From a virus (lineage: Duplodnaviria > Heunggongvirae > Uroviricota > Caudoviricetes), in IMG/VR virus record IMGVR_UViG_2562617057_000011, positions 1 through 46,003 of that record: 46,003 nucleotides of DNA; one strand, 5' to 3'. The translations under genes were made by a program, and so were the position numbers. Below are positions 2,131 through 9,027 of this stretch, piece after piece (the stretch's first letter is position 1; every line of letters begins with the position of its first letter). The notes under the pieces are model-generated. The model searched no databases. It was not told where the DNA came from and was given only the letters and a program-made list of their open reading frames with translations.

Positions 2131-2700
2131 TCATTCCGGATGCTCCTGAGCCACGTTGAAATCGCCATGATCACGACAAGGCATCACAACAAATTCAGGA
2201 TTGCCATACATTGAGTTGATGATGGAATCAAACTGAATTCTGACCGCTTGCCCGTCACCGGAGGGACGTAACTGGACGGGAATAAATTTACGCTCACGAC
2301 CAAACATCTTCTCTGGATAACTCAGGTAACCCGCCTGGAGCACCGGGTGAGTACAGCGGTCAAACTTTTTCGGAATGATGCGATCCAAATCCGGAAAACA
2401 ACCGTCCACCAGTTTAATGCCGGTAATGGACAGTCGTCGCTGAAACTGGTCGCGATGAACAGCGATCGGCTCTTTACTAAAAATCAGCTCTGTCGTTTCG
2501 GCTTTGGCCGGGACGCCCCCTTCGAACTGGACAATGATGTTTTTCTTCGTCCGGATGCCGTGAGCCATGCGCAGTGCCACGGAACCATTGGTTGCCTCAA
2601 TATGTTTCGGCGTGATGTGAAGACCGTTCAGGTAATAACGAACGTCGTTTTTAGCAGCGCACACCAGAGCGGCGCGAATAAGTTTTGACTGGATGATCAT
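2131..2700 (-). CDS. truncated DNA polymerase III beta sliding-clamp (DnaN) homolog, 189 aa
   Basis: Motifs DVRYYLNG, ATNG, KLVDGCFPD..RIIPK and C-terminal FVVMP match E. coli DnaN domains II/III as recalled; ATGA start overlap with the upstream gene. Confidence 0.75.
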   Translation of the reverse strand: MIIQSKLIRAALVCAAKNDVRYYLNGLHITPKHIEATNGSVALRMAHGIRTKKNIIVQFEGGVPAKAETTELIFSKEPIAVHRDQFQRRLSITGIKLVDGCFPDLDRIIPKKFDRCTHPVLQAGYLSYPEKMFGRERKFIPVQLRPSGDGQAVRIQFDSIINSMYGNPEFVVMPCRDHGDFNVAQEHPE

Positions 2701-3446
2701 GCTTTATCCTCCCATCCGATCACCTGGAAAAGCCCCATCTTCGGGTGATACCAGCGTGTGCCGCGTGGTTCAGCCTCTGACATCATTTGGTGGAACGCCG
2801 CCATAAATGGCTCAAGCTCGACGATAGCCCTGCGAGACAACAGACCGTCCGGAGTCATGAATTCGTGGGTGTCTGTAGGAATTTGATATGCGTTCACCAG
2901 ATTCCGACACTTGGCGTCACTCATTCCACTTTTGGCTACCACCTGGCGGTAACCGACATATCCGGCGCGCATTGTGCCGCGTTTGATGTTCTCCACAGCT
3001 TTGGTGACCGTTTCGATCTTCTTTTCAACATGACTCAGGCGCTTTTGCTGGCGAACGGCATCGGCGGCCATTGCAGCGATCATCTCCATTTCCGTCAGCG
3101 GCGCGTGAGTTCGGAAATAGCTGTTAACCAGTTCGCGCTGAACCTGCCAGGCCAGATCGTCGGTGAAGGATTTCACCAACATCAAATAACCGGATTCGAC
3201 CAGTACAATTCCTGCTGCTGCAAATTTTGAGAAAGTACCGTCAGGGAGGTGTCGACGAATTTCGTCGGAACCTAATTCGAAGTAGTCTTCCCCTTCAATA
3301 AGACGAGACTTGTTTTCGCGGAAATTGCGTCCCGCTGTTCCGTCCGGGCGTTGGTGCACTTCATCAATCATCGCCAGCGTCACCATGCGCTGACCGCGAT
3401 ATTCGATTACCGGAAACTGTTTGTTGTTGATGGTTACAGTATTCAT
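2697..3446 (-). CDS. KilA-N/ORF6N-domain antirepressor-like protein, 249 aa
   Basis: ATG at 3446 with GGAGA Shine-Dalgarno; N-terminal ORF6N/KilA-N-like region; C-terminal ~130 aa paralogous to the C-terminus of the Rha protein at 9715-10428. Confidence 0.8.
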   Translation of the reverse strand: MNTVTINNKQFPVIEYRGQRMVTLAMIDEVHQRPDGTAGRNFRENKSRLIEGEDYFELGSDEIRRHLPDGTFSKFAAAGIVLVESGYLMLVKSFTDDLAWQVQRELVNSYFRTHAPLTEMEMIAAMAADAVRQQKRLSHVEKKIETVTKAVENIKRGTMRAGYVGYRQVVAKSGMSDAKCRNLVNAYQIPTDTHEFMTPDGLLSRRAIVELEPFMAAFHQMMSEAEPRGTRWYHPKMGLFQVIGWEDKA

Positions 3447-3489
3447 TTTTATCTCCAGACAGCCCGGCGTGTAATACCGGGCATATGTA

Positions 3490-4320
3490 TTACTTAACCT
3501 GAATAAATGGTGTGTTGGCACCGCTGGTCATGTACTGCGGCAGTGTGCCGTTCCATTTATTGATGGCTTCCAGCTCCATAACACCGGGGTTCTGGCGCAG
3601 AGCTTCACCGCGTAAACGAATTGCATCGGCTTCGGCCTGGGCTTTTGTGCGAATCGCATCAGCCTGTCCGGCAGCTTCTGCACGCAGCATGTTGGCTTCT
3701 GCTTCGCGTTGTTTAACTTCCTGCTCGCGTTGCAGTGTTTTCTGGTTTGCCGTGACTTTGGCGTTAATGCTGTCGATAACGGTTGGTGGGTACTCTGGCT
3801 TACCCACATATGAGAGGCTCATTACCTGAATACCGATGGGTGTCATTTCTTCCTGGATGTCTTTTAGAGCGGCATCCAGTAATTCAGATTTACCGCCGTC
3901 AATAAATTTGTCGGTGGTCATTTTGCTGGCCAGCCGATTGAGTGCGTCGGCGATCTTCTGGCGCAGGTCGGTGTTGGTAATGTCATCCACGCCTTTGCGG
4001 TAAGTCTGAAACACCGTGGTAACTTTGGATGGATCAACTTTGTAGGCCACGCCGATGTGATAGCCGATGGTTGTGCCGTCACTCATCTGGAAACTGAACG
4101 GTTCATCGTAGGTCTTCATTTGCTTGAAGGTCGGGAAAATGTAAACTTCAGTATTCCAGCCAGTCCAGTAGCGACCAACACCGACCACTTCACCGACACC
4201 TTTGTCGTCGCCCAGTTTGTTGACTTTGATACCCACATTACCTGGTTCAACGCGATCGCAACCTACAAGTCCGAAGACAGCCAGACTGACCGCGAAAACA
4301 AGCGCAATTGTTTTTTTCAT
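3490..4320 (-). CDS. SPFH/band-7 (prohibitin-family) lipoprotein with coiled-coil C-terminus, 276 aa
   Basis: Signal peptide with lipobox LVGC; SPFH-like core; Ala/Gln/Glu/Arg-rich coiled-coil tail; ATGA overlap with the upstream small membrane ORF. Confidence 0.85.
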   Translation of the reverse strand: MKKTIALVFAVSLAVFGLVGCDRVEPGNVGIKVNKLGDDKGVGEVVGVGRYWTGWNTEVYIFPTFKQMKTYDEPFSFQMSDGTTIGYHIGVAYKVDPSKVTTVFQTYRKGVDDITNTDLRQKIADALNRLASKMTTDKFIDGGKSELLDAALKDIQEEMTPIGIQVMSLSYVGKPEYPPTVIDSINAKVTANQKTLQREQEVKQREAEANMLRAEAAGQADAIRTKAQAEADAIRLRGEALRQNPGVMELEAINKWNGTLPQYMTSGANTPFIQVK

Positions 4321-4505
4321 TTTTCCCTCCCGGGGAAAGAAAGACCCTTATAAATGGCATAAATGCAGGGCGGGGTCAGACACGCCAGAGCAAAGCCAGA
4401 AATCACTGCTACCGTATCCTTCATTGATATGAGGGCCGGAACGATTAATCCGTAAATACATGCGATAATTGCCAGTGATATAACTATTCTGAAATAAATG
4501 TTCAT
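4317..4505 (-). CDS. small two-helix membrane protein, 62 aa (ORF track extends to 4538 inside the IS end)
   Basis: Two hydrophobic segments; ATG at 4505 is exactly at the IS target-site duplication; translationally coupled to the SPFH gene. Confidence 0.5.
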   Translation of the reverse strand: MNIYFRIVISLAIIACIYGLIVPALISMKDTVAVISGFALACLTPPCIYAIYKGLSFPGREK

Positions 4506-4549
4506 GTGAGGTGTACTGGCAATAGCGGACACTACCATTTGTTCTTTTT

Positions 4550-5368
4550 TTAAGCAGCCATCTGATGATATTTTTCCCTGAAGGCTGCCGGGGAGATATT
4601 CCCCAGACGAGAGTGACGACGCTGACGATTGTAGAAAATCTCAATGTATTCCCGTATTACTGAGATGGCTTCATCCCGGTTATTAAAACGATAGTGGCTC
4701 AGGCTCTCATTTTTCAGCGTTCCCCAGAAGCTTTCCATCGGAGCGTTGTCGTAACAGTTACCTTTACGCGACATTGATGTTTTCAGACCAAACTGCTCCT
4801 GTATGACCCGGTAATCGTATGCGCAGTACTGTGAACCTCGATCAGAGTGGTGGATTAGCCCGGCAGGTGGGCGCTGGCTCCTGAGCGCCATAAACAGGGC
4901 TTTACCTGTCAGCTCTTTTGTCATGCGCTCTCCCATGGCGTAGCCGACAATTTCGCACGTATAAACATCTTTGATGCCAGCGAGGTACAACCATCCCTCC
5001 TGTGTGGCAACATACGTCAGGTCCGCCACCCAGACCTGATTTGGTGCTGTAGGAGCGAACGTCTGGTTCAGCAGATTTGGCGCAACTGGCAGATTGTGGT
5101 TCGAGTTCGTAGTCGCTCTGAACTTGCGTTTCTGCTTACAGCGTAGCCTTAGCTCCTTACGAAGACGTGCCAGTCGGTCACGACCAACGATGATGCCATT
5201 CTCTGCCAGCTCCGTCTGGAGCCGCCGGGTTCCATATGTTTCGCGAGTGCGGATATGTGCCACCTTAATCTCCAGTTTTAGCCGCTCATCACTTTGTTTT
5301 CTGTCTGAGGGTTCATGCTGTACCCAGTTGTAATAACCGCTCCTGGATACACCAAATACCTGACACAT
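4550..5368 (-). CDS. IS3-family transposase OrfB (integrase core; made as OrfAB by -1 frameshift)
   Basis: DDE-type integrase-like sequence typical of IS3-family OrfB; overlaps the orfA reading frame. Confidence 0.9.
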   Translation of the reverse strand: MCQVFGVSRSGYYNWVQHEPSDRKQSDERLKLEIKVAHIRTRETYGTRRLQTELAENGIIVGRDRLARLRKELRLRCKQKRKFRATTNSNHNLPVAPNLLNQTFAPTAPNQVWVADLTYVATQEGWLYLAGIKDVYTCEIVGYAMGERMTKELTGKALFMALRSQRPPAGLIHHSDRGSQYCAYDYRVIQEQFGLKTSMSRKGNCYDNAPMESFWGTLKNESLSHYRFNNRDEAISVIREYIEIFYNRQRRHSRLGNISPAAFREKYHQMAA

Positions 5369-5403
5369 CGCTTCAATGGGAAATTGTTGTCGCCATTGTT
5401 CGA

Positions 5404-5706
5404 TTAACGCGTATTTTTCAGCGACTCCTGTGCAAAATACGCTGTTGCTTTTTTTAATATATCTCGCTCAAGGCGAGCTTCATTTAACGCCTTACGCAGT
5501 TGCAGAATTTCAGATTCCAGTTCAGCCACCGTGCGGGAACCAGGAGTACCGAGCCCTTTTCTGGCGGCGGTAACCCATTGTCCTAAAGTGCCTTCAGGAA
5601 GGGATAATCGGGAAGCGCCTTCACTGATCGAAAGTTGATTTTCAAGAACCGTTCTGACAGCTTCGGCTTTGAACTCTTTAGAGTAACGTTGGGTTTTTCT
5701 GCTCAT
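5404..5706 (-). CDS. IS3-family transposase OrfA (HTH and leucine-zipper part)
   Basis: 100-aa ORF with HTH and heptad-Leu region typical of IS3-family OrfA. Confidence 0.9.
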   Translation of the reverse strand: MSRKTQRYSKEFKAEAVRTVLENQLSISEGASRLSLPEGTLGQWVTAARKGLGTPGSRTVAELESEILQLRKALNEARLERDILKKATAYFAQESLKNTR

Positions 5707-5832
5707 TATTAGCTCCTTCTGATGCCATTCTATTTCAGGAAGGAGTGTCCGTTAAACTCAGGCTACCTCAATGGTCCTCTTGATGTATTCGGCTTGCCTT
5801 ATTTAATTGCGTCATGGTTAATTTCGTTTACG

Positions 5833-6225
5833 TCAGAATGGTTTTGTTGCCATCAGTTCGTAATATCCGGCGCTCCATGTGTCATATTTTCTGAACCATT
5901 TTTCTGTATACTGTTTCCTGGCGATGAGTCTGCGCAGTCGTCTGATTGTTCGCTGGTGTGCGCGGGTATACTCTGTGGTTGATTCTCCACGTTTCCATAT
6001 CTCATTCCCGTTGAAGATAAAACGCTTGTCAGGATGGCGTTGTCGGAATCCTGAACGTTCAAAAGCGCGGGTGGTCATAAAGAATGCCAGGTAACGAATT
6101 GCCGTTTTTCGGGTGAGGCATTTTTTTGTTCTTCCGTGGCGTGTTACAAAAAATAACGGGCCGACGGGTGTATCATGTTTCTGTAATGCCTGGTCAATGG
6201 CGCTGGCGGTGCGGTTGTCGATCAT
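5833..6225 (-). CDS. hypothetical basic protein, 130 aa
   Basis: ORF with ATGA overlap to the upstream gene; Arg/Lys-rich; no family recognised. Confidence 0.55.
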   Translation of the reverse strand: MIDNRTASAIDQALQKHDTPVGPLFFVTRHGRTKKCLTRKTAIRYLAFFMTTRAFERSGFRQRHPDKRFIFNGNEIWKRGESTTEYTRAHQRTIRRLRRLIARKQYTEKWFRKYDTWSAGYYELMATKPF

Positions 6226-6440
6226 TTCTTTATTTCCCCCGAATAACGTTCATGACTCATTACTTCCCAGTTCCGGCCGTCGTCTTTCGATAACAGCCGC
6301 CAGCGACGGTTAACCTTCAGACTGAGATATCCGTTGCGCTGTATCCGATGCGGGAATATACATCGGCATCTGTACCGCCGCAGGACCAGCAACGCCTGCT
6401 GGTGGACCCACTCAGGAATTCGTGTTGCTGTTAATGTCAC
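6222..6440 (-). CDS. hypothetical protein, 72 aa (start uncertain)
   Basis: ORF in an operon-like array; its 5' end overlaps the upstream gene by 29 nt, so the true start may differ. Confidence 0.35.
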   Translation of the reverse strand: MTLTATRIPEWVHQQALLVLRRYRCRCIFPHRIQRNGYLSLKVNRRWRLLSKDDGRNWEVMSHERYSGEIKK

Positions 6441-8259: not shown

Positions 8260-8916
8260 TCAGAAAATATCCCACCTGGCATCAACCACAACACCTACTA
8301 TTTCGCAATCATTGTCCATTTCTATGATGGGATATTGTGGATTAAGGGGCTTTAGAAACGCCTTCCCCATTTCAGAAATATATTTTTTGAATGTTGCTTC
8401 ATTGGTGGATTTTTTTCTGGCGATGACGTAACACCCTGAAAAAACTTCTTTATCTGGATTGACAAGGATCGACATTCCTTCAGGAAATGTTATTCCTATA
8501 GGCGAAGTCATTGAGTCTCCGTGTACTTCCAGCCAGAAGCCCCTCTCACCAGCGTATTTTACAGAATGCCTCCAATTATCCTGATCATACATGTTGTAGT
8601 CATCACCTGCAGTTGCGAATAATCCTGCCTGAACCCAGTTAATTACAGGGTAAGAGTGTGCTGTGTCTCTCTGGGGACAGCTCTTAACATTATTTTCCCA
8701 ATACTTACCTTTTTCATCTCCGTTCTGAAGCCACTGCGGTGAACACTGCAGTGCCGCTGCGACTTTAAAAAGCGTGTCACCGTTGAAACTTTTTGTAAGA
8801 CCTTGCTCGGCTTTACTGATTGCAACTCTGGTGACCCCAGCTTTTTTAGCCAACGCATCTTGCGTTAACCCAGCTTTTTGTCGTGCGTTGATGAGGCGTT
8901 CACCTAAAGATTTCAT
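8260..8916 (-). CDS. cI: CI-type prophage repressor (XRE HTH plus S24 LexA-like peptidase domain), 218 aa
   Basis: N-terminal HTH, C-terminal S24 peptidase-like domain; ATG at 8916 with AAGGAG Shine-Dalgarno; divergent from a cro-like gene. Confidence 0.9.
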   Translation of the reverse strand: MKSLGERLINARQKAGLTQDALAKKAGVTRVAISKAEQGLTKSFNGDTLFKVAAALQCSPQWLQNGDEKGKYWENNVKSCPQRDTAHSYPVINWVQAGLFATAGDDYNMYDQDNWRHSVKYAGERGFWLEVHGDSMTSPIGITFPEGMSILVNPDKEVFSGCYVIARKKSTNEATFKKYISEMGKAFLKPLNPQYPIIEMDNDCEIVGVVVDARWDIF

Positions 8917-8938
8917 TTTTCTTCTCCTTTCATGGCTG

Positions 8939-8975
8939 CTGATACTAAAGTAACAGAATATCTTGATACTTTGGA
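8939..8975. promoter_or_regulatory. OR-like operator region (divergent promoter region between cI and cro)
   Basis: TTGATACTTTGG at 8964-8975 and TGATACTAAAG at 8939-8950 within the 111-bp cI-cro intergenic region. Confidence 0.55.
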
Positions 8976-9027
8976 TTCTCATGTTTAACATTCTTGGATA
9001 ACAGAGTATCCGGTGTGAGGCTAAAGA

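Follow-up and report, generated by a model that had tools for sequence, protein, structure and literature searches.

The stretch of DNA analysed here (the window, 46,003 nucleotides (nt) in length) is IMG/VR record IMGVR_UViG_2562617057_000011, a Caudoviricetes prophage beside yecE/yecN of E. coli, and the subject of the analysis is a pair of overlapping genes on its minus strand at positions 3490-4505. The upstream gene encodes a 62-amino-acid (aa) membrane protein with two transmembrane (TM) helices and the downstream gene a 276-aa SPFH (Band 7) lipoprotein with a long helix. An initial annotation, made from the sequence alone, had described the same two proteins as translationally coupled through an ATGA overlap, and all of these elements were recovered at their positions. 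Features assigned to the pair were as follows.

3490-4320, minus strand: gene of the SPFH (Band 7) lipoprotein, 276 aa, ortholog of N4 gp20
4258-4320, minus strand: signal peptide and lipobox L-V-G-C21 with Asp at +2, read from the sequence; the Cys is invariant in alignments
3694-4254, minus strand: SPFH/Band_7 domain, residues 23-209 (Pfam envelope), a beta/alpha core in the AlphaFold model
3592-3786, minus strand: long single helix, residues 179-243 (AlphaFold), which aligns with the coiled-coil regions of HflK and prohibitin and corresponds to the coiled coil that builds the wall in cage-forming SPFH proteins
3538-3558, minus strand: C-terminal signature KWNGtLP, with Trp256 and Gly258 invariant and Pro261 nearly so in a 75-sequence alignment and in a second alignment
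4317-4320, minus strand: ATGA stop/start overlap, in which the TGA of the small open reading frame (ORF; 4319-4317) lies over the ATG of the lipoprotein gene (4320-4318)
4325-4331, minus strand: Shine-Dalgarno sequence GGGAGGG of the lipoprotein gene, within the 3' end of the small ORF
4317-4505, minus strand: gene of the small partner, with its ATG at 4505, encoding 62 aa with two TM helices and a short conserved turn

The SPFH lipoprotein and its two-helix partner

The N-terminus of the lipoprotein reads MKKTIALVFAVSLAVFGLVG-C21 and conforms to the lipobox pattern [LVI][ASTVI][GAS]C. Assignment to the SPFH family, for which a Pfam search had been proposed, was borne out by a match to Band_7 (PF01145) above the gathering score (E = 6.3e-31, 108.2 bits against a cut-off of 23.6), and the protein matched PHROG 200 with E = 1e-114. 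Its AlphaFold model (predicted local distance difference test, pLDDT, 92.3) contains one unbroken helix at residues 179-243 and has all the elements of a full-length SPFH fold, namely an N-terminal anchor, the SPFH core, a coiled-coil helix and a C-terminal cap. When the whole model was searched with Foldseek, full-length prohibitin, HflK/C, erlin, stomatin and flotillin were each matched at probability 1.00 and QmcA was also matched, the top match being prohibitin (E = 3.5e-14). A profile of 75 family members compared with the PDB returned, in order, prohibitin-1 (6.5e-10), HflK (8e-7), HflC (6e-6) and QmcA (1e-3). The ratio of nonsynonymous to synonymous substitution rates (dN/dS) of the lipoprotein is ~0.05, indicating strong purifying selection.

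Membership of the HflK and HflC families themselves was rejected, with 22.8 bits against 159.4 for TIGR01933 and 25.5 bits against 134.4 for TIGR01932. Nor does the locus encode an HflK/HflC hetero-pair, for it holds one SPFH gene, which carries a lipobox, and the gene upstream of it encodes the 62-aa non-SPFH protein. Homologs of the lipoprotein have been labelled 'serine protease', 'transposase', 'RIIB lysis inhibitor' and 'Dda-like helicase', and domain or fold support was found for none of these labels; mislabelled records include AJ298298, LC567830, KU682439 and OY979426.

The small protein (MNIYFRIVISLAIIACIYGLIVPALISMKDTVAVISGFALACLTPPCIYAIYKGLSFPGREK) consists of two hydrophobic helices linked by a short polar turn with the motif YG..xPxLISxxDT; Pro23 and Ser27 are invariant and Gly37 is nearly so. 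Its start Met is shared with homologs (PHROG 1130 alignment and RefSeq coding sequences), and the protein matched PHROG 1130, a family named 'membrane protein', with E = 1.2e-23. Alignment of 21 diverse phage partners and of the N-termini of fused proteins (see below) gave the consensus YGxxxPxLxSAxxT. No Pfam family was found for the small protein at E <= 0.01, and across the 21 members only noise was found at E <= 1, including holin matches of E = 0.04-0.06 in one of the 21. The initial annotation had named NfeD among the families to look for; an NfeD identity was rejected, as the partner matched neither NfeD or OB-fold models nor any other Pfam family and, at 62 aa, is too short for an OB domain. 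The dN/dS of the small ORF is 0.12-0.30, which again indicates purifying selection. A word-indexed search with the partner alignment returned enterobacterial relatives only, all of them without names. The module is already present in databases (in PHROGs and as N4 gp19/gp20), where the small partner family is unnamed; no earlier description seems to exist of this family, of its fusions or of its distinctness from NfeD.

Linkage, distribution and the question of defence

Linkage of the two genes was assessed with a partner profile built from the 21-partner alignment and run over 164 fetched loci. At 143 of the 164 the partner gene directly precedes the SPFH gene on the same strand, at 7 it lies within 1 kb and at 1 it is fused to the SPFH gene, and the 13 loci at which no partner was detected are the most divergent ones. 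Across P88, N4 and RCS47 the two genes overlap by 4, 8 or 20 nt. When 1.84 billion representatives were searched exhaustively with HMMER, 225 family-level relatives were returned at E <= 1e-30, and the best-scoring matches included at least 19 single-ORF proteins of 322-392 aa that begin with the 2-TM partner and continue into the lipoprotein (P0152, P0158 and P0160 are examples). The lipobox Cys is invariant in all 19 of these fusions, where it follows a third hydrophobic helix, and a model of one fusion, read for secondary structure only, has three N-terminal helices followed by the SPFH domain. Because adjacency is conserved, the genes overlap translationally and natural fusions provide Rosetta-stone evidence, joint action of the two products in one membrane is almost certain, and on these grounds the two-component membrane-acting module put forward in the initial annotation was upheld. 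Conservation and purifying selection together argue firmly against a chance juxtaposition. The fusions also fix the predicted topology, with the N-terminus in, the turn out, the chain back in, and the signal-anchor out, which places the SPFH domain in the periplasm. Retention of the lipobox suggests that the fused precursor is a polytopic polyprotein that is still cut by signal peptidase II into two components.

Comparison of alleles bears on how the partner is inherited. In P88 and in P1-like copies the mature lipoprotein is ~92% identical to that of the window, and the upstream gene and signal peptide belong to another allele. The P88/P1-type small protein shares 16-21% identity with the window partner, yet it has the same length, two helices and the turn motif, with Pro23, Ser27 and Gly37 kept. 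At the DNA level, homology of window positions 3523-4269 to P88 (locus L004) and RCS47 (locus L005) is limited to the mature lipoprotein (~87-91% identity); for its final 11 codons, as for the signal peptide and the small partner, the window copy has a different allele from P88 and RCS47. With DNA homology confined in this way to the mature lipoprotein, the partner and the signal peptide would therefore travel as a single cassette. The RCS47 partner is an unannotated 78-aa ORF (L005, 4775-5011, minus strand) that overlaps the start of the P1-type SPFH gene by 20 nt, and the cluster of this type (P0309) is found on at least 1000 contigs, where it is unnamed or missing in annotations. The phiP27 partner (locus L003, 3307-3492) is likewise unannotated.

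Relatives of the lipoprotein were found by tblastn in 488 phage records, many of them of virulent phages. Close relatives of the pair occur in phiP27, in many Shiga toxin (Stx) 2 phages, in the HK97-like phage Fraca, in the P2-like phage P88 and in P1-like and SSU5-like phage-plasmids. The pair was found in 571 of 5426 complete E. coli genomes (~1/10), at 418 chromosomal and 241 plasmid places. The strictly virulent N4-like Erwinia phages carry the module, an Aeromonas phage carries lipoprotein and partner, Pseudomonas and Burkholderia phages carry relatives of the lipoprotein, and more distant lipoprotein relatives were found by tblastn in phiCbK, crAss-like and Lak phages. In the Vequintavirinae, which are also strictly virulent, a small gene lies between the partner and lipoprotein genes. 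The inserted gene (2341-2505 in locus L089, 1784-1957 in L091 and 1841-2005 in L092, all from virulent carriers) encodes a soluble protein of 54-57 aa (MLLNLKASTWEKLQ...) that looks ribbon-helix-helix-like by eye.

Bacterial contigs were scanned with a 12-sequence alignment, whose two patterns skew the sample, towards Dyella for instance. Enterobacterial copies recovered in this way lie on chromosomes or on contigs of ~58-109 kb. In Dyella and other Rhodanobacteraceae the pair occupies a neighbourhood kept across more than 20 species (loci L109-L158; e.g. L127, 4432-5813), and this neighbourhood is not phage DNA, judging from its flanking genes, which encode an S9 peptidase, a BlaR1-type M56 peptidase, two hemerythrins and ribonucleotide reductase (nrdA). 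This setting suggests a cellular housekeeping role for the Dyella module. The module thus spans virulent phages, temperate phages, phage-plasmids and a chromosomal neighbourhood of Dyella. It is accessory in character, as indicated by its patchy distribution, its presence in 571 of the 5426 E. coli genomes and its absence from bases 1-70,000 of the genome of the N4 relative G7C.

Within the window, the pair lies inside a long leftward operon on the minus strand, which extends from the LexA/cI-like repressor gene at 8260-8991 as far as xis and int (1-1606). The int and excisionase genes are ~93% DNA-identical to their counterparts in the Stx2e phage phiP27. The early region of this prophage is of the Rha/Ash type, with no recognised cII, and the genes around the pair are tightly packed in a single operon. 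A crude consensus scan of the coding strand, in the window and in an uninterrupted allele, found no promoter-like or terminator-like site flanking the pair, except for the promoter of an IS600 element described below. The pair thus lacks the promoter and terminator of its own that a prophage moron would carry; a self-contained moron is not supported, and the pair sits within the leftward early operon. The same placement is found in Fraca, which has the pair in its leftward early operon, flanked by the immunity region and by xis/int, and in P88 the pair is part of the Pe early operon, with cox on one side and the replication gene A on the other. In temperate phages the pair was in no case a stand-alone cassette. 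The initial annotation placed it at the site of the exclusion genes of lambdoid phages, which is only loosely true: the operon is of the PL type and the pair is near xis/int, but it lies outside the immunity region.

The same annotation had gone further and proposed a prophage superinfection-exclusion or abortive-infection effector. Neither protein, and neither of the two downstream neighbours, matched any model of PADLOC-DB v2.0.0 (2023) at E <= 0.01, and no functional study of the gp19/gp20 family was found in the literature searched. Prophage-expressed defence of the lysogen is unlikely to be the core function, because the module has virulent carriers and a Dyella chromosomal setting, lies in an early lytic operon and matched no PADLOC model, and the proposal of a prophage defence or abortive-infection effector was judged unlikely on balance. 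The findings fit an early-lytic membrane function that some bacteria also use for themselves. A 'defence' label drawn from position alone is unsafe for pairs of this kind.

One version of the abortive-infection proposal would make the 2-TM protein a pore-former or holin-like effector, restrained by the lipoprotein and freed on infection. Pore-formers are frequent among the small 2-TM proteins of phages, and an effector gene followed by a regulator gene would be an order compatible with such a system. The holin matches in Pfam are noise, however, PADLOC returned nothing, and carriage in early lytic operons, in virulent phages and in the non-phage neighbourhood of Dyella argues against a toxin; the natural fusions, in addition, make an antagonist pair unlikely. 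Such a system is considered very improbable.

A role in lysogenic conversion was also weighed, given that the prophage family of the window includes Stx-converting phages of pathogenic E. coli. In this case the lipoprotein would be a virulence factor exposed through outer-membrane vesicles, acting as a Toll-like receptor (TLR) 1/2 agonist in the manner of PM0222 of Pasteurella multocida, an SPFH (HflK/C-like) protein of 25-35 kDa from a prophage that is reported to occur in cells and vesicles and whose deletion reportedly attenuates virulence (PMC9872710). PM0222 is only a possible relative of the gp19/gp20 family, many virulent phages of environmental bacteria have the module, as do Dyella from soil, and Asp at +2 predicts an inner-membrane rather than a surface location. 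Any triacylated lipoprotein stimulates TLR2. A virulence function of this type is rated as highly unlikely.

A proposed periplasmic SPFH assembly and its alternatives

The closest known counterpart of the pair is gp19/gp20 of coliphage N4. It is orthologous to the window pair, with gp20 62% identical over its full length and with overlapping genes in the same order, and gp19 is a 68-aa membrane protein of the same 2-TM architecture with the same Pro/Ser turn motif. The window pair has both marks of the N4-type module, a KWNGxLP C-terminus and an upstream 2-TM protein with a PxLxS turn. N4 differs in being strictly virulent and in the +2 residue of gp20, which is Tyr where the window lipoprotein has Asp. 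No published function for gp19 or gp20 was found in the literature searched, and according to a paper on an N4-like phage, why a phage should encode an SPFH lipoprotein 'remains unclear' (PMC13239085). Structural biologists currently pay much attention to SPFH scaffolds (prohibitin, HflK/C, stomatin, flotillin), and their carriage by so many phages is puzzling; the present analysis ties a prophage pair to N4 gp19/gp20 and defines a family of 2-TM partners with invariant residues and fusions.

Three solved SPFH systems were used for comparison. HflK/HflC in complex with FtsH (PDB 7vhp, 7wi3, 9cz2) likewise has a periplasm-facing SPFH domain, an N-terminal anchor and a wall-forming helix, and its subunits are both a full-length fold match and the best bacterial sequence match of the window lipoprotein; they differ in sequence (16-18% identity), and the window has one gene, a lipid anchor and a dedicated 2-TM partner. 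Prohibitin PHB1/PHB2 (PDB 8rrh, 9o9z) is of similar size, gave the top Foldseek match and the best profile match (6.5e-10, nearly full length), and forms a cage on the non-cytoplasmic side of an energy-transducing membrane, but it is a eukaryotic mitochondrial hetero-oligomer with neither a lipoprotein anchor nor a 2-TM mini-partner. Operons of SPFH and NfeD proteins, such as QmcA-YbbJ (PDB 8z5g), resemble the window pair in encoding a small membrane partner whose helices are expected at the footprint of the cage. The window partner, in contrast, has no NfeD or OB-fold, QmcA is the weakest of the SPFH matches (1e-3), and QmcA faces the cytoplasm whereas the window SPFH protein is predicted to be exported. 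Among phage proteins, T5.080, 44RRORF098c and Aeh1ORF064c (PHROG 200) are likewise SPFH proteins encoded in early or tRNA regions; the T5 and T4-like proteins differ in having one TM anchor, no lipobox and no detectable partner, and are distant (BLASTP E = 0.045 for T5.080).

The favoured explanation, in which moderate confidence is placed when it is taken as a whole package, is a prohibitin/HflK-like SPFH ring or cage in the periplasm, with an obligatory 2-TM partner and an accessory role early in the lytic cycle. In E. coli, Asp at +2 is the Lol-avoidance residue by which lipoproteins are retained in the inner membrane. The window lipoprotein would accordingly be exported, lipidated at Cys21 and held on the periplasmic face of the inner membrane, a placement predicted because of Asp at +2, the partner and the fusions. 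To our knowledge, every structurally solved full-length SPFH protein oligomerises into a ring or dome through its long helix; by analogy, the lipoprotein may do so through its own helix and fence off a patch of inner membrane. The partner, which would be made in a 1:1 ratio, would sit in this patch or at its rim with its Pro/Ser turn towards the periplasm, and would provide the transmembrane element that is missing from the lipid-anchored SPFH protein and that HflK, prohibitin and QmcA carry themselves. Functionally, the assembly would be a dispensable accessory that conditions, stabilises or protects the host inner membrane, or that sequesters an inner-membrane client, early in the lytic cycle.

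Several points weigh against this explanation. Oligomerisation, lipidation, inner-membrane location and contact with the partner are all argued by analogy, and the proposed conditioning of the membrane is generic and names no client. With Tyr at +2 in N4 gp20, the simple rule for this residue predicts retention non-uniformly. The crude promoter scan could miss a weak internal promoter active in lysogens, and a possibly related SPFH protein of a Pasteurella prophage is detectable in lysogen cells (PMC9872710). Dispensability is consistent with the 'Not Fit' result for T5.080 in a CRISPRi-ART screen (PMC11879866 supplement), in which T5.080 alone was covered from PHROG 200; the distance of T5.080 (BLASTP E = 0.045) means that dispensability transfers weakly. 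SUSP1 has no PHROG 200 member in the annotation used in that paper and did not appear among those most closely related to the Seunavirus gene.

The resemblance to HflK/C and prohibitin could also point to proteolysis, with the module acting as a modulator of the host protease FtsH or HtpX that captures the protease or competes with HflK/C and so changes the turnover of substrates such as lysis-lysogeny regulators, LpxC or membrane proteins. The predicted topology is that of HflK/C, periplasm-facing with an N-terminal anchor; prohibitin and HflK/HflC head both the sequence and the profile matches; structurally characterised SPFH cages with a non-cytoplasmic orientation (HflK/C, prohibitins, erlins) partner proteolysis machinery; and one phage record names a homolog 'putative FtsH membrane protease modulator'. 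The lambda cIII protein is an inhibitor of FtsH, and the place of the pair in a PL-type operon parallels that of cIII. On the other side, identity to HflK/C is 16-18% and the family score is 25.5 bits against 134, the single gene forms no hetero-pair, and a lipid anchor replaces the TM helix that contacts FtsH. The window prophage, moreover, has no recognised cII, and virulent phages, which do not choose between lysis and lysogeny, commonly carry the module. Protease modulation is regarded as a live but unlikely alternative.

Superinfection exclusion, or protection from lysis-from-without, was weighed separately from defence of the lysogen. Here a cage and partner made early after infection or induction would block or sense secondary DNA ejection at the inner membrane. 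T4 Imm and Sp, P22 SieA and T5 Llp are phage exclusion proteins that act at the envelope, and Imm, Sp and Llp are made early in the lytic cycle. Like these, the window proteins are small membrane proteins or lipoproteins of phages, and a periplasm-facing inner-membrane site and early expression would match them, as would an accessory gene of patchy distribution; no sequence or fold relationship to Imm, Sp, SieA or Llp was detected.

Comparison of N4 with G7C offers a further lead. In N4 the pair adjoins gp18, annotated 'superinfection exclusion, similar to P22 gp17'. G7C has no gp18-gp23, in place of which it carries three small ORFs (locus L165, 9129-9826), and it has instead a T4 Imm-like 'immunity to superinfection' gene, gp27.1 (L165, 13358-13618). 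A profile search for both proteins, with N4 as positive control, found no SPFH module in bases 1-70,000 of the 72,917-bp G7C genome. N4 shows lysis inhibition triggered by superinfection, by a sensor that the preprint describing it does not identify, and G7C reportedly does not show it (10.1101/2025.11.12.688109). This contrast is a single comparison, and the preprint neither mentions nor implicates gp19/gp20. No homology to a known exclusion or defence protein was found, either. The low dN/dS (~0.05 for the lipoprotein), the motifs kept across phages of very different hosts and the non-phage chromosomal neighbourhood of Dyella are, furthermore, unlike typical exclusion genes, which evolve fast and are target-specific. 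Exclusion is therefore held to be possible but on balance unlikely. A more specific proposal combines these elements into a new type of SPFH system, a lipid-anchored periplasmic cage with a dedicated non-NfeD 2-TM adaptor, perhaps made as a polyprotein in its fused versions, that would be deployed early to seal or monitor the periplasmic face of the inner membrane against secondary ejection and would serve as the barrier or sensor in N4 lysis inhibition; in this full form it is put forward as a quite improbable extension. N4, P1-like plasmids and lambdoid prophages in E. coli K-12 provide a tractable system for studying what a periplasm-facing SPFH cage does, be it exclusion, protease control or membrane protection.

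The IS600 insertion and neighbouring genes

The copy of the pair in the window is interrupted upstream by an insertion sequence (IS), which the initial annotation had not mentioned. Two features were assigned in this region.

4507-5770, minus strand: IS600 (IS3 family, 1264 bp, ends TG...CA), named 'IS3-like element IS600 family transposase' in RefSeq at identical loci
5776-5781, minus strand: original ribosome-binding site of the small gene in its displaced position, AAGAGG (AGGAGG in the intact allele), now 1264 bp from the ATG

The insertion point lies one base upstream of the ATG of the small ORF, with a target duplication CAT at 4504-4506 and 5771-5773. Breakpoints were set against an uninterrupted, 99.7%-identical allele in E. 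coli FDAARGOS_944, and the end sequences agree with them. In the intact allele AGGAGGACC precedes the small-gene ATG, whereas in the window the sequence before this ATG is that of the IS end, which provides no ribosome-binding site. From 3300 to 6300, the scan matched only one promoter-like site on the coding strand, that of the IS600 transposase. The module in the window is probably poorly or abnormally expressed, because IS600 severs the small gene from the upstream operon and from its ribosome-binding site. Output of the small protein is probably reduced in this copy, and the lipoprotein, which retains its own ribosome-binding site, would rely on read-through from the IS for its expression. 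An in-frame ATG at 4538 lies inside the IS end, 11 nt past the transposase stop; termination-reinitiation at this codon, which would add 11 residues to the small protein, is speculative. Among the matches listed, IS600 is present in 5 of 6 E. coli genomes with an allele at least 99% identical, and it is absent from FDAARGOS_944.

Three neighbouring genes, all on the minus strand, were also noted. Directly downstream of the pair is an ORF6N/KilA-C anti-repressor-like gene (2697-3521), found in the same order in Fraca and FDAARGOS_944. Its 274-aa version, which starts at a GTG and overlaps the 3' end of the lipoprotein gene, is probably too long, since RefSeq starts the gene at an internal ATG (750 nt). 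The gene at 2131-2700 encodes a 189-aa protein with the RefSeq name 'beta clamp domain-containing' and a weak Pfam match to DNA_pol3_beta_2 (E = 0.007); it may be a phage sliding-clamp-like protein of the early-left operon, and the label of its PHROGs family, 'RusA-like Holliday junction resolvase', looks mislabelled. Upstream in the same operon, a 72-aa ORF at 6222-6440 that overlaps its neighbours is named 'ParE family toxin-like protein' in RefSeq and may be a toxin-antitoxin remnant.

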